From NCBI GenBank assembly GCA_023129075.1, contig JAGMCT010000001.1, positions 2,099 through 66,098 of the forward strand: 64,000 nt of DNA, written 5' to 3'. A model generated the notes under the pieces. The model ran no database searches and had not been told where the DNA came from. It saw nothing but the letters and a program-made list of their open reading frames with translations. Each line of letters begins with the position of its first letter. Position 1 is the stretch's first letter. The translations under genes and the position numbers were made by a program. This DNA comes from Candidatus Micrarchaeota archaeon. Lineage in GTDB: Archaea; Micrarchaeota; Micrarchaeia; Anstonellales; Bilamarchaeaceae. Of the stretch, positions 1 through 53,084 are shown in pieces.

Positions 1-158
1 AAGAATAGTAAAGGCCCAGGGTACAGAAACTATAATACCTATGAAAAAAGAAAGCAGTAAAAAATACAGGATTTCTTTTTTTTCTATTCCAAAAATCATA
101 TACAGGATTCAGGGGGAATGTTTTTTAAACTTTAGAAAAAGAGTAGAGCAGAAAGGTA

Positions 159-195
159 TTCAAAAAAATTTACTTGCGTTTTATCTTCTAGAAGC
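159..195 (+). repeat. 37-nt direct repeat, copy A (partner at 2202-2238)
   Basis: Hand alignment: 33/37 identical to 2202-2238. The two copies bracket the 293-1966 gene. Confidence 0.8.
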
Positions 196-292
196 AATTC
201 TTCCTACGAAGGAATCTAAGACCTTTTCACAATTAAAAAAATAACAAGAATAAAAAAGATTAAAAACTGTTGGAACATATCAAAAAAAAGAA

Positions 293-1966
293 TCAGTTTT
301 CAAATTTATATATGTCAAAATCTTTATTATGCCATATTCTTTTGCCATATTTTGGAATAGTAGATGAATTAGTCAGAATATAATCTATTGAGTAAAGGGA
401 ATAAGTTGAGCAATTCAATTCATTGTAAATGTTATTCTGAAAAATGTATCTTACAATTGGTAATTTTGGATAATATATTGAGTTTGATTCAACTGATTTG
501 AAATAATATGTTTCATTAAAAACATTAGAAGCAAAACAGTATCTATCAATCAGCTCTTTTTTAGAAAGGAATATATATCCTTTTTCTTGTTGAAATATAT
601 ATACTTTGTTATGGGTAAGGTGAAGAATACTGGAAACATATTTCATGTCTGATAGAACTACTGAATTCTTATCTGTATTTTTATCTAGCCAATTAAGAGT
701 TTCTATAAATGAAGGTTCTAGTAATTTATTCTCAAAAGAACCATTTAAAAATGAAAAAAACTGGAGGAAAAACATCAAAAGAATTAAAAAAGAGGTCAAA
801 AAAAACACGTATCTTTTCGACAGTCTTATTTTGTTCAAGAAAAAGACAGATAATATTCCTATTGAAATTGGTTTTATTACATATTGAATAAAATGGTGAG
901 GTTGTAAGTAAAAACTTGTTATCACATGTATATTGAGTACAATAAACATGGAAAAAGCTAGAGCTAAGAAAAAAAATCCAATGAATCTTCTTTTAAATAG
1001 AAAAATGGAGATTATAAAAAGAAGGGAGATAAAAAAGATAGATTGTGGGGGAAAAATAGGGGTATTTGTCATCACTAATCTCCAAAAAGAGAGTACGTCT
1101 TTACTTATGGGGTTGGATAAAAAAAGTAAATAATTAGCAATGCCAAATAAAGCAATAACTCCAAGTAAAAGTAAAGGGACCATTCTTTTTTTTACCTCTT
1201 GAATTTTAGTTTTAGAAAATAAAAAAATCATAAAATAATATATCAACAAGAAAAGGAAGAAAAAACTAACGAGATAAGGATAAAAATAAATAACCGAACC
1301 CCCTACAAGAACAAAAAGAAATGTAAATAATTTATCTTTTGGATTTCTTTCGTAGAGAATAAAAAAACCTAATGCAAAGAATAGAATCCACGCAGATAAC
1401 AATGGTTGTCCTAATCTTACTGCAATCACGATTCTTGGTATTCCAAATAGATCATCTACGAAGGAGAATACTTGAGCTAATTGAGGGAATGTAGTTATCA
1501 AGAATGAAAGAATTATCTGCGGCAAATATACCCCAACAAAAGCCATGTATGTACCAATAACTGAATAAGAAATATTTTTGCAAAATGAATACAAGAAAAA
1601 GAAAAATGAAAAAAATAAAATAGATGAAAAAACTAGAAAAAAGAGACAAATGTAAAATTTTGTAGGACCTCCACCAATTAAAAATAAAATATAACCTATA
1701 AAGTCAGATAAAGAATACATTGGATTGTAAAAAAAATTTGCATCTCTCTGTTCTGCAGTATAATCTTCAGACGTTAAAATATTGCCATCGCCTAACTCTG
1801 AAAATCTGAGAGTGTATATCCCTGCATCCCCTCTTTCCCAAGTAACAAAACTTAAACCATATTGTGGAAGATAAAAAAAATGAAAAGAAGAAATCAGAAA
1901 AACAAAGATAAAAAAAGGAACATAGAATTCTTTTTTAAATATAAAATCAAATATTCTAAATTGCAT
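293..1966 (-). CDS. Polytopic integral membrane protein with C-terminal soluble domain; possible GT-C-type glycosyltransferase or glycan polymerase (function not established)
   Basis: 557-aa ORF. The N-terminal ~400 aa is a run of F/L/I-rich hydrophobic helices and the C-terminal ~130 aa is hydrophilic. It lies in a glycan-biosynthesis neighbourhood. Confidence 0.65.
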   Translation of the reverse strand: MQFRIFDFIFKKEFYVPFFIFVFLISSFHFFYLPQYGLSFVTWERGDAGIYTLRFSELGDGNILTSEDYTAEQRDANFFYNPMYSLSDFIGYILFLIGGGPTKFYICLFFLVFSSILFFSFFFFLYSFCKNISYSVIGTYMAFVGVYLPQIILSFLITTFPQLAQVFSFVDDLFGIPRIVIAVRLGQPLLSAWILFFALGFFILYERNPKDKLFTFLFVLVGGSVIYFYPYLVSFFFLFLLIYYFMIFLFSKTKIQEVKKRMVPLLLLGVIALFGIANYLLFLSNPISKDVLSFWRLVMTNTPIFPPQSIFFISLLFIISIFLFKRRFIGFFFLALAFSMFIVLNIHVITSFYLQPHHFIQYVIKPISIGILSVFFLNKIRLSKRYVFFLTSFLILLMFFLQFFSFLNGSFENKLLEPSFIETLNWLDKNTDKNSVVLSDMKYVSSILHLTHNKVYIFQQEKGYIFLSKKELIDRYCFASNVFNETYYFKSVESNSIYYPKLPIVRYIFQNNIYNELNCSTYSLYSIDYILTNSSTIPKYGKRIWHNKDFDIYKFEN

Positions 1967-2201
1967 GAAATATGATACTTACCAATCAATTAAAAATATG
2001 TGGGTTACGAATTAATTACAAATAAAAAATAATTTATAAAAGAGAGAACAAAACAACAATACTTGATATAATTAATCTAAAAGAACAAAAACTTCTTCTT
2101 GGAAACTGGCTATTTGCCAATGGTGGGGGGATACTAAAGAAGAAAAGAGGATATAAAATTGCTTCTCCATGGTTTATTCATAACCAAAAGCTATAAAACC
2201 T

Positions 2202-6499: not shown

Positions 6500-6925
6500 C
6501 TATAACTTCAACAATGCTTCGATCTTTTTTACAAATTCTTCCGCAAATGAAACAATTCTCTGTGCCTCGTCGTCGGTTGGATAGTAATCGCCAGCATACA
6601 TTGTTTTATGCCTTTTGTCTCTGTACTGATCGAATAAATCAATATTAGAAATTCCCACTTCTTTTGAGTATTTTGTTTCTAAGTATCTTGCTACACATGC
6701 ATGACTTTTCTCTCTAAATCCATCTCTGAAAAGTACTGCTCTTGCCGCATCCAACATGGAAGTATATGCAGATAAGACTGCAGAATTAGGGGAGTTTATC
6801 TTCAGCGCTTTTTTAGCTTCTTCAAGGAGAACCCTGGCTTTTTTCAGTTGTTCTTCAGACTGCCTTTTTGATGGCGGAATCTTTCTGAGCAGTCCTTTTT
6901 CGATACAATCATTAAAATCAATCAC
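6500..6925 (-). CDS. HEPN domain protein (toxin partner of HEPN-MNT pair)
   Basis: 141-aa helical protein with FRDGFREKSHACVARYL and YRDKRHKTMYAG segments; 4-bp overlap with the upstream nucleotidyltransferase gene. Confidence 0.7.
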   Translation of the reverse strand: MIDFNDCIEKGLLRKIPPSKRQSEEQLKKARVLLEEAKKALKINSPNSAVLSAYTSMLDAARAVLFRDGFREKSHACVARYLETKYSKEVGISNIDLFDQYRDKRHKTMYAGDYYPTDDEAQRIVSFAEEFVKKIEALLKL

Positions 6926-7464
6926 AAACCTTCACCCCATAGGATTATTCCATTATAAAGCGAGAAATAAAATGCATCGCTTTTTTCTCTAAAATGTTTC
7001 AATCTTTCAGGCGTAGCAATTGTTAAATCAACCGGAACACCTAATTTCTTTTCGAGCTTCTTTCTCGTTTTTGCCAGTTCAAGATCTGCTGGTTCATTAT
7101 CCATTTTAACCCAAATATCTAAATCAGCTCCCTCTAGATTAGTTCCGTTTGCCCAGCTCCCGTATATACCAATACTCTTTGATTTTGGAAGGTGATTCTT
7201 CAAAATAGCTACCAATCTTTTTTCTTGTATCCGTTTAATATTAAATAGTAATCTAAGAGTTTTTGTTATGGGAATTTCCTGCAACCTATTTTGATCAACC
7301 AGTCTTTCTTTTCTTAAAATAGTTACATATTTGTGAATCTGCCCTACACTTAATCTCAGCTCTCGGGCCAGTTTGTTCATGTTGATTTCATTGGAAGGAT
7401 TCTTCAATAAATATCTTAGAATTTTCTCTCTTTCTTCAGTGGATAATAGCGTATGTATATTCAT
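6922..7464 (-). CDS. Minimal nucleotidyltransferase (MNT) with N-terminal winged-HTH
   Basis: IGIYGSWANGTNLEGADLDIWV (GS..D.D nucleotidyltransferase signature); N-terminal NKLARELRLSVGQIHKYVTIL HTH-like segment. Confidence 0.85.
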   Translation of the reverse strand: MNIHTLLSTEEREKILRYLLKNPSNEINMNKLARELRLSVGQIHKYVTILRKERLVDQNRLQEIPITKTLRLLFNIKRIQEKRLVAILKNHLPKSKSIGIYGSWANGTNLEGADLDIWVKMDNEPADLELAKTRKKLEKKLGVPVDLTIATPERLKHFREKSDAFYFSLYNGIILWGEGL

Positions 7465-9928: not shown

Positions 9929-10064
9929 CTGAGATTTCCGAGAGAATTATCTGAAGGATAATCTGATCTTGGAAATCCGAAGTCTTGGAAACCGGAGGTT
10001 TCTGAGAGAATTACCCGGAGGGTAATCTGAGATTTCTGAGAGAATTATCCAAAGGATAATCTAA
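9929..10064 (+). repeat. Three tandem ~35-nt units, each with a dyad (ATTATC-N5-GATAAT, ATTACCC-N3-GGGTAAT, ATTATCC-N3-GGATAAT), plus an internal TCTTGGAAA(t)CCG(a)AG doublet
   Basis: Read directly. Units at 9929-9966, 9998-10030 and 10031-10064 share TTTC(C/T)GAGAGAATTA...TAATCT(G/A)A. One stem position covaries (T:A versus C:G). Confidence 0.8.
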
Positions 10065-10124
10065 TGTCCCCCTCCGCGGTTCGGAATGAAAAGGTTTATT
10101 AATATTTTTAAGTGAAAGGGACAT

Positions 10125-10370
10125 ATGGCGTACATAGAGACATTGTTATCCAGCTGGCTTGAGATAATGAAATCATCAGGGACAACCATTTCTGTTCTCC
10201 TTATAATATTGGGCGGAATCATGTACGGGATTGCACAACTACAGCCCGGGGAAACCAGAGGGAAATGGCAGAATATTTCAATAGGAGTATTCCTTGGAGG
10301 AGTAATAATTGCTGCAATAATAGGCGCAGCAAGTGTTATTCAGGAGATTTCAAGCAACCTGCTGACGTGA
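10125..10370 (+). CDS. Small two-TM hairpin protein, VirB2/TrbC/CedA1-like pilin candidate
   Basis: 81 aa. Hydrophobic segments TISVLLIILGGIMYGIA and ISIGVFLGGVIIAAIIGAASVI are joined by the charged loop QLQPGETRGKWQN. First gene of the operon. Confidence 0.55.
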   Translation: MAYIETLLSSWLEIMKSSGTTISVLLIILGGIMYGIAQLQPGETRGKWQNISIGVFLGGVIIAAIIGAASVIQEISSNLLT

Positions 10371-10374
10371 GAGA

Positions 10375-11310
10375 ATGGCGGTAGACCTCACCATTGCATC
10401 AACAGTAGTAACCCTTTCCATAATCTTATCTGGTATACTGCTTGGGGTGGGAAAGACTATAGGCTCTAAAAAAATAGAATTTTTTGGAGCAGAAGAACTG
10501 CTTCAGTCTGTGATAAATGCAGCCCTTGTAGGAGCATATGCAGGAATAGTTGAAATAGCCACTAATTTGAGCAATGAAATAGCAGAGGTAAGCCAATGTA
10601 TGGAAGGGGATGCTTTGGAAAATCTTGCGTGCACATTTCATCAGGTATCTCTAGAGTTGTTCAAGGTTATTGGGGGGCTTTTTGTGCTAACCAATATGGT
10701 GGGGTATTATCAGACATTAAACCTTGAATTTGCGTCTTTTTCAATACAGCCGTTGGTGAACCTTTCGTCAGTTGCAGGTATTTTTGGACTGCAGTTAATT
10801 ATAATGCAACAGCTGCTTACAATTAGTGAATTTAATTATCAACTGATAAATTTCTTTGGACCTCAATTATTGAGTTTGTTCCTTCCGCTTGGGCTGGTAT
10901 TCAGGTCTTTTTTTCCGACAAGGAGACTAGGGGGTTTCCTTATTGCACTTGCAGTGGGAATCTATTTATTTTATCCGTTTATGGTATTAATATTTCCAAC
11001 CCCTATACCTATGCTTGAGCAAACAGGAAACATTATAGAGAATATAACGAATAACAGTAATTATGCTACTATTCCGATAATAGACCTGAACGGAAGTGGA
11101 GTAATCGGGGAAAAAATAGATAATCTTACAAAAGGGGACTTTACAGGGGATTTGGCAGTGAGTATTGAATCAATCAGCCAGAGCATTTCTTCAGCAACAC
11201 TTTATGTATTATTTGCACCGTTGTTTGGACTGCTGATTACTATCATATTTATAAAAGAGATAACAGACATACTTGGCGGGGAATTCTTCTTCGCGGTGGG
11301 GAACTTATGA
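10375..11310 (+). CDS. Polytopic membrane protein, VirB6/TrbL/CedA-like candidate
   Basis: 311 aa, ~6 hydrophobic helices with an N-glycosylation-sequon-rich loop (NITNNSNYAT); 4 nt after the pilin-like gene. Confidence 0.5.
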   Translation: MAVDLTIASTVVTLSIILSGILLGVGKTIGSKKIEFFGAEELLQSVINAALVGAYAGIVEIATNLSNEIAEVSQCMEGDALENLACTFHQVSLELFKVIGGLFVLTNMVGYYQTLNLEFASFSIQPLVNLSSVAGIFGLQLIIMQQLLTISEFNYQLINFFGPQLLSLFLPLGLVFRSFFPTRRLGGFLIALAVGIYLFYPFMVLIFPTPIPMLEQTGNIIENITNNSNYATIPIIDLNGSGVIGEKIDNLTKGDFTGDLAVSIESISQSISSATLYVLFAPLFGLLITIIFIKEITDILGGEFFFAVGNL

Positions 11311-12086
11311 TATGGAACAGGTTGATTACTATTCTTGCACTTATTGGAGGGGTGATTTCTGTATTAATCGCTGCAGTTACCGGAAATGTTATACTGACAA
11401 TCCCTTCTGCATTCTTTTTTGCGCTGAGCCTGCTTATATGGAAGTACGGATATATTTTGATGCCTTACTTCACAACTGCGGCAGGGATAATAGAGGTGAG
11501 AAGCGGATATGAAATTCCTCCTGCAAGAGACTACATAATCAAGAAAGCTGAAAACGGTTATTATGCAACGAAATTCCTTGAGATAAAATATTATGACAGC
11601 ATTGTTGACAAGAGCGATGTAGAAAAGGCTTATAGGGTGGAATCATTTGAAAAGGCTCTTGCTTCTCTGAATAGTGTAGTGAAGATATCTTTATTGGTTT
11701 CTACAATAGACCTTTCAAAGCATATAGAAGAGATAAAAACAAGAAGGGGTTCTGCTGAAGCCAAACGGGCAAAGATGGCCTCAAACAACGCGGATGCAGT
11801 AAAACTAGACAGAGAAATAGCTATGTATGACAGACAACTGGACAGGATTACTCATGGAGAAAGACCGTTGGAGGTTACATCCTTTGCATCAACAACTGCT
11901 TTTGGAGTGACGAAAGAAGAGGCATCCTCAAGAGTAAGGAGGCAGTCAAAGGAGATAAAAACCATATTATCCAGTACGCTTGGTGCAGATGTAAAGGAGC
12001 TGGCGGATGAGGATATGCTTAGATGTTTTGAATGGGATAGATTTATTCCAGCAGACCCTGAACAGTTAAGGGATGAGGTATTCTAA
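11307..12086 (+). CDS. Membrane-anchored protein (two N-terminal TM helices + soluble domain), candidate VirB3 + VirB4 N-terminal-domain equivalent
   Basis: 259 aa; overlaps the upstream gene by 4 bp and the downstream ATPase by 1 bp. Confidence 0.45.
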   Translation: MIWNRLITILALIGGVISVLIAAVTGNVILTIPSAFFFALSLLIWKYGYILMPYFTTAAGIIEVRSGYEIPPARDYIIKKAENGYYATKFLEIKYYDSIVDKSDVEKAYRVESFEKALASLNSVVKISLLVSTIDLSKHIEEIKTRRGSAEAKRAKMASNNADAVKLDREIAMYDRQLDRITHGERPLEVTSFASTTAFGVTKEEASSRVRRQSKEIKTILSSTLGADVKELADEDMLRCFEWDRFIPADPEQLRDEVF

Positions 12087-13519
12087 TGTATCTCAAAAAA
12101 TATCTTACAAGTGATATAGCGAGAAGGTTTTTCTTAGTGCATCCTCCGGAACCAAGAAAAGACCTTTTAATTTCAGGAGTAACGGAAGGGGTGTATTTAG
12201 GGAAAACCAGGTGGCTTAATGTACCTGTATTCTGGAACTACAATAAACTAATCAACCCGCACATGGCAATAGTAGGTATTACAGGAAGCGGTAAGAGTTA
12301 CCTTGTAAAAACCTTTATTACAAGAGCGGCGCTGGTATGGAATACCAATGCACTAATCCTGGATTGGGTCGGGGAATACAACGAATGGGTGAGACAGGCT
12401 GGAGGAATGGTAATCCATCTTGGAAAAGAGCACCTGAACCTGCTTGACCTGGGGGGGATGAGCAAGGGGGAGAGAATAAAACAGATAATGTCTTCACTTG
12501 ACATGATGCTTGAGTTAAAGGATTTCCCTGAAGAAAAATATGACCTGGAGGGGGCCCTGGAAAAGGTTTATAAAAAATATAAGAATCCAACGCTCGTGGA
12601 GGTTGAAAAAAGTCTGGAAAAGGATGGAAAGAAAAGGGCAGCGAGACTGCTGAAAGGATATATCGGAGAAGGAAATGATTTCTTTGCAAAGCATTCAACC
12701 CTTAAACTGGACAAATTGATTGATTCCGGACTGGTGTGTATAGACCTGCACAGTCTGCCTAGTGAAGAGATGAGAAGTCTGGCCGGTCTCACTATTCTAC
12801 AGTTTATAAAAGAAAAGATGAGAAAAGAAGAGCTTGGGAAGGAAAAGGGGATAAAGCTCTTTGTTGTGGTTGATGAGGCATGGAAGATAGCAAGGGATGA
12901 CAGGAGCGATGTGATAACTATAGTAAGAGAAGGAAGAAAGTATAATTTTGGAATAATTGTTGCAAGCCAGAATCCAACAGACATAAACAAGGCAATAATC
13001 AGCAATGTTGGAACAACGTTTGTACTAAGACTTATTTTAAGGGAATATAAGGATTATATGAAAGATTCTCTGAATTATTCGGGCTATATTGATGAGGAGA
13101 TAAGCAGATTTGGAGTGGGGGATGCAGCAATAAATATGATATTTGCAGAAAGGGCAACCGAATCCCTTACGTTTTTACTTGATAAAATAGACGGCGAGGA
13201 ACCGCTGTTTGTTTATAAAATAAGAGGTGGTGGAATGGATGTTGAAGTAGAAAGAGAGCAGTTTTCACGAATGTTATTTGAATTAGGGTTAAGTGACGAG
13301 CAGATAAACATGGTGAAGCTTGAGTTTGAAAAGAATGACGGGGTAATAAAGGCAACAACCTTTGTATCAATGCTTGAGAGGTTTGGTTATGCAAGGTCTT
13401 CTATAATTACGTTCCTGAGACAGATGGGGGTTGAGGAGAGAAATATTGTTGAAATTTTTTCCCTTATAAGAAAAAGGAAGGCGTCTAAAGGACTTGTAGA
13501 CCTTGTGCTGGAGGAATGA
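12086..13519 (+). CDS. VirB4/TrbE/HerA-superfamily P-loop ATPase (CedB-like candidate)
   Basis: Walker A VGITGSGKSYL, Walker B LFVVVDEAWK, REGRKYNFGIIVASQNPTDI motif. Confidence 0.85.
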   Translation: MYLKKYLTSDIARRFFLVHPPEPRKDLLISGVTEGVYLGKTRWLNVPVFWNYNKLINPHMAIVGITGSGKSYLVKTFITRAALVWNTNALILDWVGEYNEWVRQAGGMVIHLGKEHLNLLDLGGMSKGERIKQIMSSLDMMLELKDFPEEKYDLEGALEKVYKKYKNPTLVEVEKSLEKDGKKRAARLLKGYIGEGNDFFAKHSTLKLDKLIDSGLVCIDLHSLPSEEMRSLAGLTILQFIKEKMRKEELGKEKGIKLFVVVDEAWKIARDDRSDVITIVREGRKYNFGIIVASQNPTDINKAIISNVGTTFVLRLILREYKDYMKDSLNYSGYIDEEISRFGVGDAAINMIFAERATESLTFLLDKIDGEEPLFVYKIRGGGMDVEVEREQFSRMLFELGLSDEQINMVKLEFEKNDGVIKATTFVSMLERFGYARSSIITFLRQMGVEERNIVEIFSLIRKRKASKGLVDLVLEE

Positions 13520-13523
13520 GAGG

Positions 13524-14219
13524 ATGGAGGAAATAGTAAGGATAAGCGCAAAGAGAAAGAAGAGTTTGAAAAGACTGCTTCCTCTGCTTGGGCAGATGGG
13601 ATTCACAAAAATAGAGTATACAAAAGACAATATAATAATAGAAAAAGTTGAAAGTGAAGACCTGAAAGGAAAGCCCTATCTTTACTATCGTGTAGAGATG
13701 ATGGACAATGGAATAAAGGTAGTATATTCCATTCCTTCGCTGAAAACAAAGCTTGCAAGAACTACAGATATAGGAATGCTCATTTTGAACCTTACAAAAC
13801 TCCTGGATGATTATTATGATGTACACCCTTCTGCAATGTATTCATTCTTCCTTTCACTGCTTATAACCATGTCAAAGATGATGGACAAGGACAAGGTGGA
13901 ATTGGCATCAGAACTGGAGGGGCTGAAAATAAAACATGCAACATTAGAAAAAAGATATACTGAATTGGTGCACTCCAGCGAACAGAATGCAAGGATATTG
14001 ATGGAATGTGAAAGAAAAAAGAACGAGCAGAAGGAAAGAATAGCAAAGCTGGAGGGAATAAGCGATGATGCGCTCATGGAAAGCATATTTGGGTGGCTGA
14101 AAACACACAACGGCGAGATAGATATCTATGAATTCTCCAAGATGTACGGTCTTCCAATAGGAAGAATTGAGTATGGGCTGGAGATTCTGCTTATGCAGGG
14201 CTATATAAAAAAGAGGTAA
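13524..14219 (+). CDS. Coiled-coil protein with C-terminal winged-HTH-like domain
   Basis: ATG at 13524 (the track ORF begins at a TTG at 13503); central heptad-rich region; C-terminal IDIYEFSKMYGLPIGRIEYGLEILLMQGYIKKR. Confidence 0.6.
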   Translation: MEEIVRISAKRKKSLKRLLPLLGQMGFTKIEYTKDNIIIEKVESEDLKGKPYLYYRVEMMDNGIKVVYSIPSLKTKLARTTDIGMLILNLTKLLDDYYDVHPSAMYSFFLSLLITMSKMMDKDKVELASELEGLKIKHATLEKRYTELVHSSEQNARILMECERKKNEQKERIAKLEGISDDALMESIFGWLKTHNGEIDIYEFSKMYGLPIGRIEYGLEILLMQGYIKKR

Positions 14220-14225
14220 TTCCTA

Positions 14226-14363
14226 TGGAAGAAAAAAAGCTCTATTCCTTTGCAATTCTAAAAAATCTTCCAAGAGGAAAATCTTTCATTATTCTCAAAA
14301 GTTATGAAAAGGGAATCATTCCTAAGATACAGGAGATGGTAAGAAAGGTATTTGGTGGTTAGG
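14226..14363 (+). CDS. Possible 45-aa ORF closing the operon
   Basis: Hand translation MEEKKLYSFAILKNLPRGKSFIILKSYEKGIIPKIQEMVRKVFGG; its stop abuts the purD ATG. Below the ORF-track size cut-off. Confidence 0.3.
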
Positions 14364-17436: not shown

Positions 17437-17805
17437 ATGAAAAGAGCGCTGTTAGCGTTACTGCTGGTGTTTTTGGTGTCTGCTGTAGAAATAGAAGGAG
17501 AATGGATGAAAGGTTCTTTTCAGAGAATGCATGGTCTAATGTTCAGAATGGCCCCGGAAACATTGTTTTTTGAGATTTATAACGGTGAGATGAATATACA
17601 TTCTATATTTGTGTTCTTTCCTTTTTACGCAATCTATCTGGATGGAGATGGAAACGTAGTTGAGAAAAAAAGGGTTGAACCATTCAGGCTTGGTGTGGTG
17701 AATAAAAGGCCTGCAAAGGTTCTGATTGAGATTGGTTTGGAGGAGGGGGAGAAAATAAAGGTTGGAGAAAAGGTGGTGCTGGTTGATAGGCTGGAAGATA
17801 CTTAA
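17437..17805 (+). CDS. DUF192 family protein with signal/anchor sequence
   Basis: N-terminal ALLALLLVFLVSA; MHGLMFR and IEI segments typical of DUF192 (COG1430). Confidence 0.7.
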   Translation: MKRALLALLLVFLVSAVEIEGEWMKGSFQRMHGLMFRMAPETLFFEIYNGEMNIHSIFVFFPFYAIYLDGDGNVVEKKRVEPFRLGVVNKRPAKVLIEIGLEEGEKIKVGEKVVLVDRLEDT

Positions 17806-19117
17806 ACAAGGAGAATACAAACTGAATCTTCCTATTCTTAGTGCGGAAGAGGAGGGAGTGGTTTCTTATTTGGAAGAAAGGTTCAAAGAGGAGACAGCAA
17901 AAGAGAGTATAGAAAATATAGAAGAGAGTTATGACCTGCTGAAGGCTATAATTTACAGGTATATGGATGAGGAAGGAATTCTACTTGATACGGAGCAGAC
18001 AAATTATCTTACTGAAATTGCACATCTGCACATATATGAATTTGGATTCATAAGCATGCTTCTGAAAGACGAGAATGTAGAGGAGATAAGTATTGTAGGT
18101 GCAGGTAAACCTGCATATGTATTTTTGAGGAATGAAGGATGGAAAAGAGTAAATGCGATGTTTACAACAGAAGAAGAGATAATGAATGTTGTGAACAAGA
18201 TGGCAAGGAATCTTGGGAGAAGAATAACCTTTCAGAACCCAAGGCTGAATACAATATTGCCGGATGGGTCAAGACTGCATGCATCTCTGGGGCCGATTTC
18301 TGAAGGAGAGATAACCATAAGGAGGTTTAGGGAGAATCCATTTTCGCCTCCAGAACTTGCAGAAACGAGAACAGTATCGGAAAGAGCCCTTGCATACCTT
18401 TCGTTACTTATGCAGAGCGACAGCTCAGTTATAGTAGCCGGAAATACTGCAAGCGGAAAAACCACAACCCTGAATGCATTGTTCAGTTTTATTCCTGAGA
18501 ATGAAAGAATAGTGATAACTGAGGAAAGCCCTGAGATAAATGTGCCGCACCAGCAGCAGATAAGGATGATTGCAAATGAGGATATGGGAGTTTCTCTTAA
18601 AGATTTGGTTTATGACAGCCTGAGGATGAGGCCGGACAGGCTGATAATAGGTGAAGTAAGAAACAAGGATGAGGTTGAAGCGTTGTTTGATGCCCTTCTA
18701 GGAGGGCAGGCAAGGGGTTGTTATGCAACATTCCATGCACAGAGTGCAAAGGAAACCTTCAGAAGGCTTAATTTCTTTGGAATAAATGAAATAGATTTTA
18801 AGAGTATAGATGCTGTGGTTGTGCAGAGAAGAATGTTAAGATATGAGAAGGGAAGGAATAAAGAGATAAGGAAGATAACTGAGATTGTATTTGATGTGGA
18901 TAAGAAGTTTTTGGGGTATGATTTGGAGAAAGATAAATGGAAGGGAAAAAACGAGGAGATATTAAGAGAAAAAATAGGGATGAAACTTGGGTTGAGTGAA
19001 AAAGAGATTAAGAAAGAGATTGAAAAGAGAGAGGGGATTTTAAAAAAGAGGTTGGGTTTTTGGGAATTCTTTAAAGAATTCCAAAATAAGGTTTATGGTA
19101 TAAAGGTGGAAACATGA
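17762..19117 (+). CDS. Type II/IV secretion system ATPase (VirB11/FlaI(ArlI)/CpaF family); start codon uncertain
   Basis: Walker A AGNTASGKTTTLNAL, ITEESPE Asp/Glu box, RLIIGEVR Walker B region, TFHA His box. The next in-frame ATG downstream of the 17762 start lies well inside the ORF. Confidence 0.85.
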   Translation: MEKRWCWLIGWKILKQGEYKLNLPILSAEEEGVVSYLEERFKEETAKESIENIEESYDLLKAIIYRYMDEEGILLDTEQTNYLTEIAHLHIYEFGFISMLLKDENVEEISIVGAGKPAYVFLRNEGWKRVNAMFTTEEEIMNVVNKMARNLGRRITFQNPRLNTILPDGSRLHASLGPISEGEITIRRFRENPFSPPELAETRTVSERALAYLSLLMQSDSSVIVAGNTASGKTTTLNALFSFIPENERIVITEESPEINVPHQQQIRMIANEDMGVSLKDLVYDSLRMRPDRLIIGEVRNKDEVEALFDALLGGQARGCYATFHAQSAKETFRRLNFFGINEIDFKSIDAVVVQRRMLRYEKGRNKEIRKITEIVFDVDKKFLGYDLEKDKWKGKNEEILREKIGMKLGLSEKEIKKEIEKREGILKKRLGFWEFFKEFQNKVYGIKVET

Positions 19118-32179: not shown

Positions 32180-35100
32180 ATGAAAAAAATTTTTCTTATT
32201 ATGCTTGTTTTGAGTTTGGTTAGTGCTGTTTCAGAAAATTATGAAAGGCCCTGGGAAAATCCTTATTGGATGAACGGCAATCCGTATGTAAAAGAGACAT
32301 GGGGGTATGTGGTATCGGATTACGAAACGCTCACGCCTTTATTAGAAAAAATAAATTTTGATGAACTGGAAGAAAAGGGAGTGTGTGTTGCGCAGGCAGA
32401 AAGGGAGATAGATGATGTTTTATTGAAAAGGGAGAAGTGCGAGGAGTTTCATTCCATCGAACGGCTTGGACAGGAGAGTTTCACCATTGCAACAATTGGT
32501 TTGGTTGGGGGAATAATACCTACTGCTTTTGTAACGTTATGGATCAGTGGAGAAAGACTAAACCTCACCCTTGAATGTGTGGAGTATTGGGGGGAATGGA
32601 AAGAAGCTGCAGATGCTCAAATTGAGATTGTTGAAACGGAAGCGCGGGAATACAATAATGTATATGAAAAAAGGGAAATTGCAAAAAAAAGTCTTGAGAA
32701 AAGCGGGGCATGCCAGCAATCCTTCATTCTTTATGAAGAAGAAGTGTGTATGTACGAATGGATAGATATTGAATGCAATGGAAGCGGAATGAATGAATAT
32801 GCTCCGGATTTCAGTTGGATTGAAGAGTGTGTTCTTGAAATGAACGAAGGAAAAGAAAGGATGGAACAACAAGCATATGAAATGGAAGAACGCTTGGAAG
32901 CATTGGAACAATTCTACTACGAAAAAAGATTTGAAGCTGAGCAAAAAAAAGAGCAGACCAAAAACAATCTGTTGGAACTTGAAGAAGAAAAATTACAGAA
33001 AATAACAAGACAGGTCATCCTTGAAGGGGAATTTATAGATTTCGGGGATATAAAAACAACATATGAACAATTGGTGAAGATGAAAAACAGCGGAGATTAT
33101 CTTCTTGAAGATGGAAAAAATAGATATTCATATGGAGGCTCCTTTTATTTGAAGGAAGGAATTGAATACACTGAATCAGCAATACAACTCTATAATAGCA
33201 TAAATGAAGGAAAAGAGGGGTTGCTGGACAACGCAGAGGTTGTTGTTGAGATTATAAGGGAGGAAGCACGCCAGAAAATCCAGGAGGTTGAAGATGACGG
33301 GGGAATTGTTGAAGAAGCAAATGAAAGATATGAAAAAGCGGTGCAGGAATTTGAAGCAGGGGAGGTATCTGAAGAACTTGGAAATAGTTTTGTCCATTAT
33401 ATAAATGCATTTTTTTATGCTGAGGAAGCGCTGGAAATCAATAAAAATAAGGTGGATTTGGAGAAAATAGAAGCAGGCATAAAAGAGATTGAAGATTTGA
33501 TAAGCAGAGCTGAAGCAGATGAAATAAATATTTACATAGAAAAACAACAGCTGGAGAGTATAAAGAATTCAAAGGATGTTTATGGGTTGGGAAAACTCAG
33601 AGGAATAAAAAGTAGTATTGAAGAAAAAGCGCTTGTAAAATACGGGCGCCTGCAAACCAAACGACAGGAACTGATTGGTTGGATTGAGGCCGGCGGGGCA
33701 GATTTTGAGAAATATAGGATAGAGATAAGAAGTGTTGAAGGAGTTTGTGGTGGGGAAAATGAGCTTGACCTAATCTGCGCAATAGGCAATCTAAAAGAGA
33801 TAAGTATAACTTACCTTGAAGTGGAGCAGGATTTGAAAGAGAAGAAAGGGGAGATTATTGAAAACGGACTTATTGTAAAATCAGAGGAATATATCGGGGT
33901 TGTTGAACTGGATGAAAAAGGGGATTTGTTCTTGGAGGTAATAATAGACAATCCTTTCAAGCTTAGCGCAGAAAATGTGGTTGTGGAAATTATTGGGGTT
34001 GAAGGTTATGATGAAAATGATATTATGGGGGGGAGTGAACAGGTTAATGGTGTTGTTAGTGTAAAAGGAAATCTTAAGATTTATCTTAAAGAAATTAAAG
34101 AAAATGAACATTTGTTATTGCGATTTGAAAAAGAAGAGGTTGTTTGCTATGTTGAAGAGGAAGAGAGTTATGGAACTGGAGAAGGTTATGGAATTGCAAG
34201 AATTTATAGGGAAATAGATTTGGTATGTACACGCGATGCTTCTGGTCTTGTGCTGCCAGAAGGGTGGAACAATTGGGAATTAAACGGAAAAAAAGGAACG
34301 GGCAATATAATAAAAAGGACAATAAGAACGGGGGACCACGAACTAAAAATAGAGTTTTTGATTGAGGATGCCTACAACATAACTAAAAAAAATTATTTCA
34401 CAAACACACTTGGTTTTACAACAACTGTAGAATGTGATGTAGAAATAAAAAGCAGCTACTCTTTGGATACTGTGGTAATTTTTCTTAGTGGTGTTGATGA
34501 AAATGCAGAAAACATACGGGTTTTTGCGTATACTGGAGAAACTGTTAGGAATAAGGACCTCCTAGCTGGGGGCATCTTAACGTTCATGGTGAGAGATGTA
34601 GAGGGTGTTGTTTTAGTTAGGGTAAAATATGATATAAAGAATATAAGTAATAAAGTTGAGGAGAAATTAGATGAAATAGCTGTGTTTGTAGAACAGAACA
34701 ATATTACTGGAAAGGAAAGTGAAATTGAAGAAATAAATGAATTAGTTAAAGTAGGGGAATATGATGAAGCTTATGTAAAAGCCAATGAAGTTTACGATGA
34801 TGTGCTCAAGGAGATAAAAGAAAGAGAAAAGTATGAACGGATGTGCAAACGGGAGATGAATCAGATAAAAGAGGAAGTATTGGAACTTGAAAGGTGTGTT
34901 GGGAATATTATAGAATATGGATTGGAAGACGAAACATCTTTGGAAATAAACGCAAGGAAAAATTATTTGGATGGATTGATTGAAACGATGGTTTGTTCGG
35001 TAAATCCGGGAGCAACATATCTGGAGCTAAAGGATGTAGATACTAATTGGAATACAAAAAAGGCGAAATCAGCTGGCAAAGAATTGAAAAAAGAATATAA

Positions 35101-35851
35101 TGAAGCCAAAGATTTATGGTTAGGGAAAGGAGGTAATGAAACAATAAGAACAAAACTCAACAAAGTAAATGGTTATTTAATTGAGTTATCTGCCACAACA
35201 GACCTGTATTACTGGGTAGAAGCAAGAAACCTGCTGAATTCTGTGAATAAGATGTTGAGTACAACGCCAAGCAAAAACAATATTGAAGAAGAGTATGGGG
35301 AAGAATTGAGTACGGCAAAGAACAATAAGGTTGAATATATGGAAGAATATAATGAAGCAAAAGGGACGGATTTTGAAAAACTTTTTAGCCTCAGTTCCAA
35401 CGAGATAAAAGTAAGGATAGATGAGGCTGATGACGAAGCAAGCGCAGGAAATTTGGATGAACTTAAGGAACTAAATGGTATTATGGAGGGTGAGATTGAT
35501 TTAATCCGAAAAGAGGCCGGAAAAAAATATGAAAGTTTGGAAGAACGGATTGGAGAAGTGAGAAATGAGATAAAAAATGAATATATAGAAGAGGCAACAA
35601 AATACCTCGCAAATGCCAAGGATTATTATGAGAAAGAAAAGTATGTCAAAAGTCTTAAGGAAACTTCTATGGGATATGAAAAATTGAATGTTGGTTTTAA
35701 GGAAAGAGAAAAAGGAATGGAGGGGATAATAGTTTTAGTGCTGACTGGATTGGTTATTGTGGGTGGAATAGTCCTCTATGTTTTGAATAAGAAAGAAAAG
35801 AAAGGAGGAAAAAAACAACTGAAAAAATTAAAGAAAGGAAGTGATATCTAA
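32180..35851 (+). CDS. Giant (1223 aa) secreted, glutamate/lysine-rich coiled-coil surface protein with C-terminal TM anchor
   Basis: Signal peptide MKKIFLIMLVLSLVSAVS; C-terminal GIIVLVLTGLVIVGGIVLYVL followed by a basic tail; scattered Cys pairs. Confidence 0.85.
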   Translation: MKKIFLIMLVLSLVSAVSENYERPWENPYWMNGNPYVKETWGYVVSDYETLTPLLEKINFDELEEKGVCVAQAEREIDDVLLKREKCEEFHSIERLGQESFTIATIGLVGGIIPTAFVTLWISGERLNLTLECVEYWGEWKEAADAQIEIVETEAREYNNVYEKREIAKKSLEKSGACQQSFILYEEEVCMYEWIDIECNGSGMNEYAPDFSWIEECVLEMNEGKERMEQQAYEMEERLEALEQFYYEKRFEAEQKKEQTKNNLLELEEEKLQKITRQVILEGEFIDFGDIKTTYEQLVKMKNSGDYLLEDGKNRYSYGGSFYLKEGIEYTESAIQLYNSINEGKEGLLDNAEVVVEIIREEARQKIQEVEDDGGIVEEANERYEKAVQEFEAGEVSEELGNSFVHYINAFFYAEEALEINKNKVDLEKIEAGIKEIEDLISRAEADEINIYIEKQQLESIKNSKDVYGLGKLRGIKSSIEEKALVKYGRLQTKRQELIGWIEAGGADFEKYRIEIRSVEGVCGGENELDLICAIGNLKEISITYLEVEQDLKEKKGEIIENGLIVKSEEYIGVVELDEKGDLFLEVIIDNPFKLSAENVVVEIIGVEGYDENDIMGGSEQVNGVVSVKGNLKIYLKEIKENEHLLLRFEKEEVVCYVEEEESYGTGEGYGIARIYREIDLVCTRDASGLVLPEGWNNWELNGKKGTGNIIKRTIRTGDHELKIEFLIEDAYNITKKNYFTNTLGFTTTVECDVEIKSSYSLDTVVIFLSGVDENAENIRVFAYTGETVRNKDLLAGGILTFMVRDVEGVVLVRVKYDIKNISNKVEEKLDEIAVFVEQNNITGKESEIEEINELVKVGEYDEAYVKANEVYDDVLKEIKEREKYERMCKREMNQIKEEVLELERCVGNIIEYGLEDETSLEINARKNYLDGLIETMVCSVNPGATYLELKDVDTNWNTKKAKSAGKELKKEYNEAKDLWLGKGGNETIRTKLNKVNGYLIELSATTDLYYWVEARNLLNSVNKMLSTTPSKNNIEEEYGEELSTAKNNKVEYMEEYNEAKGTDFEKLFSLSSNEIKVRIDEADDEASAGNLDELKELNGIMEGEIDLIRKEAGKKYESLEERIGEVRNEIKNEYIEEATKYLANAKDYYEKEKYVKSLKETSMGYEKLNVGFKEREKGMEGIIVLVLTGLVIVGGIVLYVLNKKEKKGGKKQLKKLKKGSDI

Positions 35852-53011: not shown

Positions 53012-53084
53012 GCCACGGTAGCTCAGTTGGGAGAGCACTCCGCTGAAGACGGAGGGGTCGTCGGTTCAAATCCGGCTCGTGGCA
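53012..53084 (+). tRNA. tRNA-Phe (GAA)
   Basis: Hand-folded cloverleaf: acceptor GCCACGG/TCGTGGC (one G:U), anticodon arm CTCCG-CTGAAGA-CGGAG, T arm GTCGG-TTCAAAT-CCGGC. No intron and no encoded CCA. Confidence 0.93.

Follow-up and report, generated by a model that had tools for sequence, protein, structure and literature searches.

A chromosomal operon of Candidatus Micrarchaeota encodes a candidate minimal machine of the Ced/Ted kind with its motor split over two proteins

In the literature that we searched, domesticated conjugation machines in archaea have so far been known from the Thermoproteota, as the Ced and Ted systems. Ced (CedA1, CedA, CedA2, CedB, CedD and CedE; Sulfolobales and Desulfurococcales), which imports DNA between cells (PMC9905601, PMC11868833), derives from a type IV secretion system (T4SS), is encoded on the chromosome and has no relaxase; in Sulfolobales it can be induced by DNA damage. 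Ted (the TedC pilin, TedA and TedB; Thermoproteales), compared here by its description, is a domesticated VirB2/VirB6/VirB4 set, and the parts of Ced and Ted have no recognisable sequence similarity to each other (PMC9905601). In bacteria, the Patescibacteria (candidate phyla radiation, CPR) carry a chromosomal, relaxase-less T4SS that is nearly universal in the phylum, has VirB2-like pilins of the PF18895 type and was reported to be essential for epibiotic growth (PMC12102498). Here we analysed a 64,000-nt stretch of contig JAGMCT010000001.1 from a Candidatus Micrarchaeota archaeon (hereafter the window), which holds a module of six co-directional genes on the + strand at 10125–14362 (Table 1). 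A first-pass annotation of the sequence had described this module as a minimal, conjugation-like and domesticated machine, and that overall description proved essentially right; most of what it had predicted was borne out, and none of the outcomes that it had named as contradicting it was found in full. We observed homology of the ATPase, of a split N-terminal motor domain and, more weakly, of a candidate pilin to the parts of such machines, together with conserved synteny and a chromosomal context. With moderate confidence, we regard the operon as a chromosomal, vertically inherited, minimal T4SS derivative of the Ced/Ted kind, which forms a separate Micrarchaeota-specific lineage and most likely moves DNA or another macromolecule at contacts. 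Our literature search on Ced, CedB or VirB4 in combination with DPANN or Micrarchaeota returned no description of such a system, and yielded only VirB4-like domains in giant nanohaloarchaeal proteins and the work on Patescibacteria.

The fourth gene encodes a 477-aa P-loop ATPase of the FtsK/HerA superfamily with Pfam matches to DUF87 and AAA_10. Its translation contains all the motifs read at first pass, namely Walker A GITGSGKS (residues 64–71), Walker B VVVDEAW (260–266) and RKYNFGIIVASQNPTDI (284–300), and the key residues of the three are invariant across 28 family members. The class of the ATPase was assigned by ranking NCBIfam hidden Markov models (HMMs) over these 28 members, in place of a reference-anchored tree. 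For the window protein, the CedB model came top (E 2.2e-29), followed by VirB4 CD1110, CedD and the VirB4 of mycoplasma integrative and conjugative elements (ICEs), with the HerA models below. Across the family, the best E-values were 1e-32 for CedB, 1.9e-28 for VirB4 CD1110, 2.6e-22 for VirB4_plasma, 6e-22 for CedD, 7e-21 for TraC and 1.6e-19 for VirB4_CagE, and four HerA models (family best E 5e-17 to 1e-14) ranked beneath these six Ced/VirB4 models in all 28 members. The ranking thus indicates a motor of the CedB/VirB4 type, as in Ced and Ted, with two caveats: the scores lie far under the equivalog cut-offs (for CedB, 102 bits where 700 are required), and the top sequence matches in the PDB are anti-phage HerA proteins (8wiv, 2.7e-17; 8xau, 4.6e-16), with VirB4 (4ag5) lower at 1.3e-12. 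Of the CedB and VirB4 models, the ATPase covers no more than the motor half at the C-terminal end (positions 250–536 of 590 in CedB), and its alignment to HerA 4d2i begins at ATPase residue 57, compared with residue 141 of that chain. Because Walker A begins at residue 64, the polypeptide has no space for a HerA barrel or for a VirB4 N-terminal domain. The VirB4-like assignment made at first pass, which a place in the HerA clade would have contradicted, was upheld by this ranking and by the missing barrel. At its other end, the protein carries a helical extension of ~90 aa; because this extension is a stand-alone 99-aa open reading frame (ORF) in the relative L022, it is a separable domain. 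Conservation of the ATPase is high, with 58–72% identity over >100 Micrarchaeota clusters.

The gene directly upstream encodes a 259-aa protein with an N-terminal transmembrane (TM) hairpin, as judged by hydrophobicity, and without a match of its own in Pfam, NCBIfam, PHROG or PDB sequence searches. Among 1.84 billion representatives, phmmer found 147 relatives, nearly all of which are stand-alone proteins of 240–280 aa, down to ~20% identity. All named representatives of the family are from Micrarchaeota, to 19% identity (Micrarchaeia, Micrarchaeaceae, Anstonellales and the cultured ARM-1, with ARM1_0478). One match was exceptional: P0360, a protein of 603 aa (E 7.4e-5) that fits the CedB model end to end (residues 13–595 against positions 9–587 of 590; E 1.8e-65) and whose N-terminus is also a TM hairpin. 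Residues 76–234 of the 259-aa family profile align to residues 71–226 of P0360 (hhalign probability 87%, E 4e-6), and residues 20–372 of the 477-aa ATPase align to residues 257–598 (BLASTP E 4e-19). Since the 259-aa protein and the ATPase map co-linearly onto a single CedB-type protein, the motor is split over two polypeptides. Judging from these alignments, the module does contain the membrane-anchored N-terminal domain of a CedB/VirB4-type motor, detached from the ATPase and carried on a polypeptide of its own, the 259-aa protein. In agreement, CedB and CedD reportedly have N-terminal domains that are homologous in structure to that of VirB4 (PMC11868833). P0382, which belongs to the 90%-identity cluster of P0360, sits in a genuine Ced locus (L024) with the order CedA1 (87 aa, PF27251), CedA (474 aa) and CedB, and with a second DUF87 ATPase nearby. 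This order is the same as the 81-311-259/ATPase order of the window module.

At the head of the operon, the 81-aa protein has two TM helices by hydrophobicity and no signal peptide, and AlphaFold2 (AF2) modelled it as a helical hairpin (predicted local distance difference test, pLDDT, 88.6). The Pfam family PF18895 (T4SS_pilin) was matched by 12 of 20 family members (best E 1.5e-4, residues 5–68 against positions 5–66 of 71), and PF04956 (TrbC/VirB2) by 5 of the 20, in the mature-pilin part (best E 3.6e-4); other small TM families in Pfam were clearly worse than these two. The 81-aa family is also homologous to the mature part of a 126-aa protein from the distant module L021, described below (hhalign probability 96.4%, E 1.2e-9), which has a signal peptide, two hydrophobic helices and a recorded weak TrbC match. 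On these profile comparisons, the evidence leans towards a two-helix pilin like VirB2, CedA1 and TedC. The family comprises 41 clusters (52–100% identity) and is confined to the window's own clade. The pilin gene turned up only there and in a single distant module, so the machine does not include a pilus throughout its range.

Between the pilin gene and the motor genes lies the gene for a 311-aa polytopic membrane protein. It has ~6–7 hydrophobic helices, and its AF2 model, built with 52 homologues, is an all-helical membrane protein (pLDDT 86.3; predicted template modelling score, pTM, 0.80). A query that concatenated the 311-aa and 259-aa proteins returned homologues of the former only, 66 in number and all from Micrarchaeota. 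The family conserves a Cys75/Cys86 pair, and relatives carry a variable insert rich in NxS/T; from the sequences, these features suggest extracellular loops. The first two helices resemble the 81-aa family weakly and not significantly (hhalign probability 21%, E 0.001), which echoes the relationship reported between CedA and CedA1 and between VirB6 and VirB2. By its position between pilin and motor and by its topology only, the 311-aa protein is a candidate counterpart of VirB6 and CedA.

Several results weigh against a T4SS origin, besides the low model scores and the PDB ranking of the ATPase given above. For the 311-aa family, none of 52 members had a VirB6/TrbL match in Pfam, a profile search of the PDB gave 0 matches, and hhalign against the real CedA of L024 reached a probability of 3.5%; Ced and Ted proteins, too, recognise each other only when deep profiles are used. 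Foldseek of its model against the PDB had an unrelated protein as best match (E 0.077), in a class of all-helical membrane folds that is poorly discriminated; the only T4SS chain was 8rtd_H of R388 (E 0.7, TM-score 0.27–0.34). Every Pfam pilin match of the 81-aa family lies under the gathering scores, its profile found nothing in the real CedA1 of L024 by hhalign, and Foldseek of its model placed no conjugative pilin among the top 50 PDB matches, with the limit that hairpins are poorly discriminated. In more distant clades, no 81-aa homologue or small two-TM ORF was present within 8 kb of the module. Finally, when the 259-aa profile was aligned by hhalign to N-terminal parts of the Patescibacteria VirB4 in L013, the matches were not significant (E 0.25 and 0.011). 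The sequences look similar by eye, but we draw no direct link between the two, and solely CedB and the literature connect the 259-aa protein to VirB4. These results bear on three identities proposed in the first-pass annotation. The VirB2-like nature of the 81-aa protein found repeated co-linear, sub-threshold matches to T4SS_pilin and TrbC as well as homology in L021, and failed to find a pilin in the Foldseek comparison. For the VirB6-like 311-aa protein, the position and the topology of 6–7 TM helices stood, and similarity of sequence or fold to VirB6 or CedA did not appear. The suggested VirB3/VirB4 tether does have a TM hairpin and a soluble domain, and is more than a VirB3-like tether, being the detached N-terminal domain described above.

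The same results could be read in another way, namely that the ATPase is an intracellular translocase or helicase of the HerA type, acting in repair, segregation or defence, that its membrane neighbours are unrelated to T4SSs and that the resemblance is superficial. HerA systems such as HerA–NurA and the anti-phage HerA proteins share the P-loop fold of the superfamily with our ATPase and provide its best matches among solved structures, Pfam names DUF87 'Helicase HerA, central domain', earlier classifications placed even CedB and CedD in the clade of HerA (PMC11868833), and the 311-aa protein has no demonstrable VirB6 homology. However, the HerA models rank lowest throughout the family, the ATPase lacks the N-terminal barrel, and no NurA, Sir2, Mre11, Rad50 or other HerA or nuclease partner is encoded within ~10 kb; the partners are membrane proteins instead. 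One of these is homologous to the anchored domain of CedB, the module is headed by a protein with T4SS-pilin signatures, and its gene order is that of CedA1-CedA-CedB. We therefore consider the intracellular HerA reading very unlikely.

The order 311-259-ATPase-238-purD is kept in 12 genome loci (L001–L012), where 238 stands for the ORF that follows the ATPase gene, and the closer relatives L014–L017 have the full set (81, ~310, 259, ~478, ~231 and ~50 aa) followed by purD. In L018 and L019 the core is kept and other genes are inserted between the parts. The core recurs in Micrarchaeaceae, Anstonellales and, partly, the cultured ARM-1; conservation of the gene order, which the first-pass annotation had proposed as a check, thus extends across the phylum. 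Over 14 loci, mean pairwise identity was 74% for the ATPase, 67% for the 259-aa protein, 61% for PurD, 57% for the 238-aa protein and 55% for the 311-aa protein, and the pairwise identities of the ATPase and PurD were correlated (Spearman 0.89), as would be predicted from vertical inheritance under strong constraint.

The surroundings are those of a chromosome. The closest relatives of all module products are from Candidatus Micrarchaeota (Micrarchaeia, Bilamarchaeaceae and others), in line with the DPANN-like host that had been suspected, and the window also encodes purD, purF, purL, purQ, PheRS and enolase; it is an ordinary chromosomal stretch of a DPANN archaeon. The epimerase and purD named at first pass do flank the module, and the next 10 kb on each side are housekeeping as well. 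Genes within ~10 kb encode methyltransferases, asparagine synthase, a glycosyltransferase, a HEPN/nucleotidyltransferase pair, the epimerase, PurD, thioredoxin reductase, a lone T2SSE-type ATPase, enolase, a Mur ligase and a DHH protein. As had been claimed, no relaxase, VirD4 coupling protein or integrase occurs among the ORFs of this interval, nor does a replication gene. The GC content of the module is ~0.40, equal to that of the flanks, and the sole tRNA of the window, at 53012, is ~38 kb away. No relatives of the module were found among 2.9 million viral contigs, and the ATPase has no close plasmid match. In these respects (housekeeping flanks, purD synteny and even GC, without a relaxase) the locus agrees with the chromosomal Ced and Ted systems and differs from the conjugative T4SSs of mobile elements.

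These data also speak to the notion that the genes serve an integrated conjugative element or a plasmid remnant as its transfer module and export the element's own DNA. The parts are conjugation-like, plasmids of bacteria and archaea carry weak relatives of the ATPase (22–28% identity), a HEPN/nucleotidyltransferase pair lies 2.7 kb upstream, and the distant module L021 is flanked by toxin-antitoxin genes and has a second FtsK/HerA-type ATPase of 751 aa. Against this, purD is kept as a neighbour in about 20 loci at 58–72% ATPase identity, the divergence of the module tracks that of purD, and the missing mobility genes, tRNA, viral relatives and GC deviation described above all point away from a mobile element. 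Of the alternatives that we weighed, this one is the least probable, and highly improbable in itself. Conjugative T4SSs of plasmids and ICEs do share a pilin, a polytopic channel protein and a membrane-tethered VirB4-type motor with the module, and their VirB4 CD1110, TraC and VirB4_CagE models all match its ATPase; unlike them, the module is vertically inherited and has no relaxase, VirD4, VirB1, VirB5 or VirB7–VirB11, and no mobile-element context.

Downstream of the ATPase gene, two smaller genes accompany the core. The 231-aa protein (238 aa if a TTG start is used) appears cytoplasmic, with an N-terminal alpha/beta domain and a coiled coil. Hints of a winged helix at its C-terminus were weak (EAP30/Vps36, 5.8e-4; 2xvc; 1sfx; MarR), and a PDB sequence-profile search with its family gave nothing meaningful, as did the one with the 81-aa family; from the sequence, a C-terminal winged helix is probable. 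The gene directly follows the ATPase gene in all relatives (38–49% identity), and related proteins occur in the distant modules L022 (E 5e-31), L023 (E 1e-30) and L021 (E 3.8e-6). The 45-aa ORF, at first only a possible gene, proved to be a genuine conserved small gene that is kept in the same position in relatives as far as Micrarchaeaceae. Its counterparts in L014–L019 are called genes of 43–53 aa, and the family (43–68 aa) shares a YSFxILKNFP..KSFIILK motif by BLASTP and alignment, with members in L005 and L022 included.

Compared with Ced, its closest characterised relative, the module is alike in being a chromosomal, relaxase-less T4SS derivative, in the order of a small two-helix protein, a polytopic membrane protein and a CedB-type ATPase (L024), in having CedB as the best-scoring ATPase model and in the homology of its 259-aa protein to the membrane-anchored CedB N-terminal domain. 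Its pilin lacks a signal peptide, as reported for CedA1 (PMC9905601). Unlike in Ced, the motor is encoded by two genes and scores far below the CedB cut-off, sequence similarity to CedA and CedA1 is undetectable, the 231-aa and 45-aa partners and the C-terminal helical extension of the ATPase are extra, and the host is a DPANN episymbiont rather than a crenarchaeon, with a highly conserved ATPase throughout the phylum. With Ted, the module shares the situation of a domesticated VirB2/VirB6/VirB4 set in archaea whose parts are unrecognisable by sequence against those of Ced. TedC has a signal peptide, as does the L021 pilin, whereas the window pilin is without one, and TedB is a full-length VirB4, unlike the split motor of Micrarchaeota.

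The T4SS of Patescibacteria, which derives from MPF-FATA, offers a third comparison. It too belongs to a phylum of ultra-small episymbionts, and the best Pfam match of the 81-aa family is the same PF18895. In the Patescibacteria locus L013, more than one ORF makes up the VirB4 region, and one gene encodes a PrgI/VirB3-like protein. The differences are that the system is bacterial, that its ATPases are only ~25% identical to ours, that its accessory genes are different and that the VirB4 N-terminus in L013 has no significant match to the 259-aa protein. This parallel raises the possibility that the Micrarchaeota machine is a host-interaction conduit for secretion, uptake or docking of proteins, lipids or metabolites, as the DPANN counterpart of the Patescibacteria T4SS. 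Phylum-wide conservation, with the ATPase above purD, fits a core lifestyle function better than an accessory aid in DNA repair, and the Patescibacteria system was reported to be essential for epibiotic growth, as noted above. Cryo-electron tomography (cryo-ET) of ARM-1, which encodes members of the 259-aa family including ARM1_0478, showed intercellular nanotubes of unassigned composition, a docking barrel in the ARM-1 envelope and thin filaments on ARM-1 cells (PMC11329633). On the other hand, the closest characterised relatives, CedB and Ced, import DNA, the cryo-ET authors assigned the ARM-1 nanotubes to the host and not to the symbiont (PMC11329633), purD, purF, purL and purQ are still encoded, so dependence on the host is possibly limited, and the window has no gene for an effector or adhesin linked to the module. 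For the same machine, a host-interaction conduit is thus an alternative to be taken seriously, though the less probable one.

For the favoured reading, a chromosomal T4SS derivative that moves DNA or another macromolecule, we propose the following model, in which we infer what the 311-aa protein does, how the machine assembles, what it transports and in which direction. The 311-aa protein would form a membrane channel or assembly platform, with its cysteine-bridged loops (glycosylated in relatives) facing outside. The 259-aa protein would be held in the membrane by its TM hairpin, as an equivalent of VirB3 or the CedB N-terminus, and its cytoplasmic domain would dock a hexamer of the 477-aa ATPase; together, the two would reconstitute a motor of the CedB/VirB4 type. 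In the window's own clade, this motor may extract the 81-aa pilin from the membrane and polymerise it into a conjugative-type pilus. The 231-aa and 45-aa proteins are predicted to be cytoplasmic accessories, such as a substrate or DNA adaptor or a regulator. The assembled machine would move DNA or another macromolecule across the envelope at cell–cell contacts, with import as the direction suggested by analogy with Ced, and in an episymbiont it could serve to acquire DNA or nucleotides from the host or from neighbouring cells.

If this is correct, the module adds a third lineage to the domesticated conjugation machines of archaea and a new phylum to their hosts. Its architecture is new as well: the VirB4/CedB N-terminal domain and the ATPase are carried by separate proteins, and two new accessory proteins join them. 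The module is conserved across a phylum of ultra-small episymbionts, with a motor more conserved than the purine-biosynthesis enzyme PurD, and would be a concrete candidate for the means by which Micrarchaeota acquire DNA or other material from their partners, in parallel to the Patescibacteria T4SS. The proposal is testable, as the 259-aa family occurs in the cultured ARM-1, whose host interface was imaged by cryo-ET without molecular assignment (PMC11329633). More tentatively, and with low confidence, the module might be a core, possibly essential, cell–cell organelle of Micrarchaeota, the third independently domesticated T4SS derivative of archaea and the equivalent in DPANN of the Patescibacteria system; with its split VirB4/CedB motor, it would build or dock the filaments or the nanotube interface between ARM-1 and its host and take up host DNA, nucleotides or other macromolecules there. 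Any link to the structures seen by cryo-ET in ARM-1 is speculation.

Table 1. Features of the module and its borders in the window.
Feature	Coordinates	Strand	Basis
Putative archaeal TATA-like box, TTTATTAATATTTTT	10095–10109	+	Read from sequence; centre ~25 nt upstream of the first ATG
81-aa two-helix membrane protein, candidate VirB2/TrbC-type (T4SS) pilin	10125–10370	+	ORF
311-aa polytopic membrane protein in the VirB6/CedA position, candidate channel/platform	10375–11310	+	ORF
259-aa protein, N-terminal TM hairpin and soluble domain	11307–12086	+	ORF
477-aa FtsK/HerA-superfamily P-loop ATPase, CedB/VirB4 kind	12086–13519	+	ORF
238-aa ORF from TTG 13503, or 231 aa from ATG 13524	13503–14219 (13524–14219)	+	ORF
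45-aa small protein, basic and non-membrane, at the 3′ end	14225–14362	+	ORF
purD, directly downstream of the 45-aa ORF		+	ORF, family match

The tight, co-directional operon described at first pass was recovered with all six ORFs in place, adjacent ones being separated or overlapping by 1–5 nt: a 4-nt gap (81/311), a 4-nt overlap (311/259), a 1-nt overlap (259/ATPase) and then gaps of 4–5 nt. Because homologues of the 238-aa ORF align only from residue 8–9, its start was moved to the ATG, which is probably the true start and lies 4 nt past the ATPase stop. Similarly, purD probably starts at ATG 14364 rather than at TTG 14352. The position of the TATA-like box suggests a leaderless or short-leader operon transcript, which remains putative, and similar A/T boxes (CATTTATTAATATTATC and GCTTTATATAGC) lie ~30 nt upstream of the 81-aa gene in L014 and L016/L017. 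Upstream of the box, 60–195 nt from the first operon gene, a 39-nt direct repeat occurs three times (9929–9967, 9993–10031 and 10027–10065). Each copy contains the palindrome ATTATC-N5-GATAAT, with compensated changes in the middle copy (ATTACC-N5-GGTAAT). The motif has no other occurrence in the window (0 expected by chance) and was not found upstream of the 81-aa gene in L014, L016 or L017; a dimeric regulator might use it as its operator, or it may represent a hairpin element or a small RNA.

Metagenome contig Ga0455670_0000779 from JGI (L021:5400-13160) holds a distantly related version of the Micrarchaeota module. It encodes the 126-aa TrbC-like signal-peptide pilin mentioned above, homologues of the 311-aa (359 aa) and 259-aa (245 aa) proteins, a 444-aa ATPase and a 206-aa relative of the 238-aa protein. 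Additional genes encode small TM proteins and the second, 751-aa P-loop ATPase of the FtsK/HerA type, and ParE, HepT/MNT and PIN/RHH toxin-antitoxin genes form the flanks. L021 may represent a paralogous or more mobile, more complete conjugation-like system.

The split motor varied in several relatives. Two tandem paralogues of the 259-aa protein are encoded in the cultured ARM-1 (L020:7156-8837, from a co-culture assembly) and in a Micrarchaeaceae metagenome-assembled genome (MAG; L022:7001-8664), which recalls the report that CedB and CedD each provide part of a VirB4-like N-terminal domain. At the ARM-1 locus, no ATPase gene is adjacent to the paralogues, and a 446-aa glycoprotein-like ORF and a ParA/MinD-type ATPase are nearby. 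In other loci, 1.5–4 kb of unrelated genes split the junction between the 259-aa and ATPase genes (L002:4157-7936, L010:5526-7913, L003:4755-7791, L011:5086-6303 and L012:4159-5475). The inserts encode large secreted or cysteine-rich proteins (1259 and 795 aa) and, as judged by eye, a 405-aa TnpB/transposase-like and a 438-aa amidohydrolase-like ORF. This junction of the two motor halves appears to act as a hot-spot for insertions.

The Patescibacteria locus used for comparison comes from a Paceibacterota MAG (L013:3150-9080), where a T4SS cluster beside dnaA/dnaN encodes a PrgI/VirB3-like protein of 145 aa and a 594-aa VirB4. Directly upstream of the VirB4 gene is a 208-aa ORF without a family match that looks like a VirB4 N-terminus by eye and was not significant by hhalign. 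The cluster also encodes an 848-aa protein in which an N-terminal PF18895 T4SS_pilin domain is joined to a large extracellular region rich in cysteine.

Elsewhere in the window, searches with HMMs detected no paralogues of the module genes. A pair of 476-aa and 258-aa ORFs at 40.6–42.9 kb had been considered as a second copy of the motor genes and was rejected as a coincidence of size, because the two encode leucyl aminopeptidase and PurQ, beside PurL and PurF. The 451-aa T2SSE-family ATPase of the type IV pilus/archaellum type (17762–19117, +) is followed by enolase and has no platform protein or pilins with it; as it is not kept near the module in relatives, it was also rejected as a part of the system. 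Upstream of the module, the HEPN (141 aa) and nucleotidyltransferase–helix-turn-helix (180 aa) genes form an overlapping pair at 6500–7464 on the − strand, which looks like a HEPN/MNT toxin-antitoxin system. The first 2000 nt of the window (1–2000) have a GC content of 0.27, compared with ~0.40 elsewhere, include a 557-aa ORF without a Pfam match (293–1966, −) and may be foreign or fast-evolving DNA. The largest ORF of the window encodes 1223 aa (32180–35851, +). Finally, a few kb downstream of the module, after purD and genes for a transglutaminase-like protein and PCNA, two relatives encode very large proteins that run beyond the loci (L014:11746-13440, 1644 aa; L016:12341-13437, 2018 aa). 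The 1644-aa protein has a faint HEAT_2 match as its only Pfam match, and both may be giant surface proteins like those discussed for other DPANN archaea.

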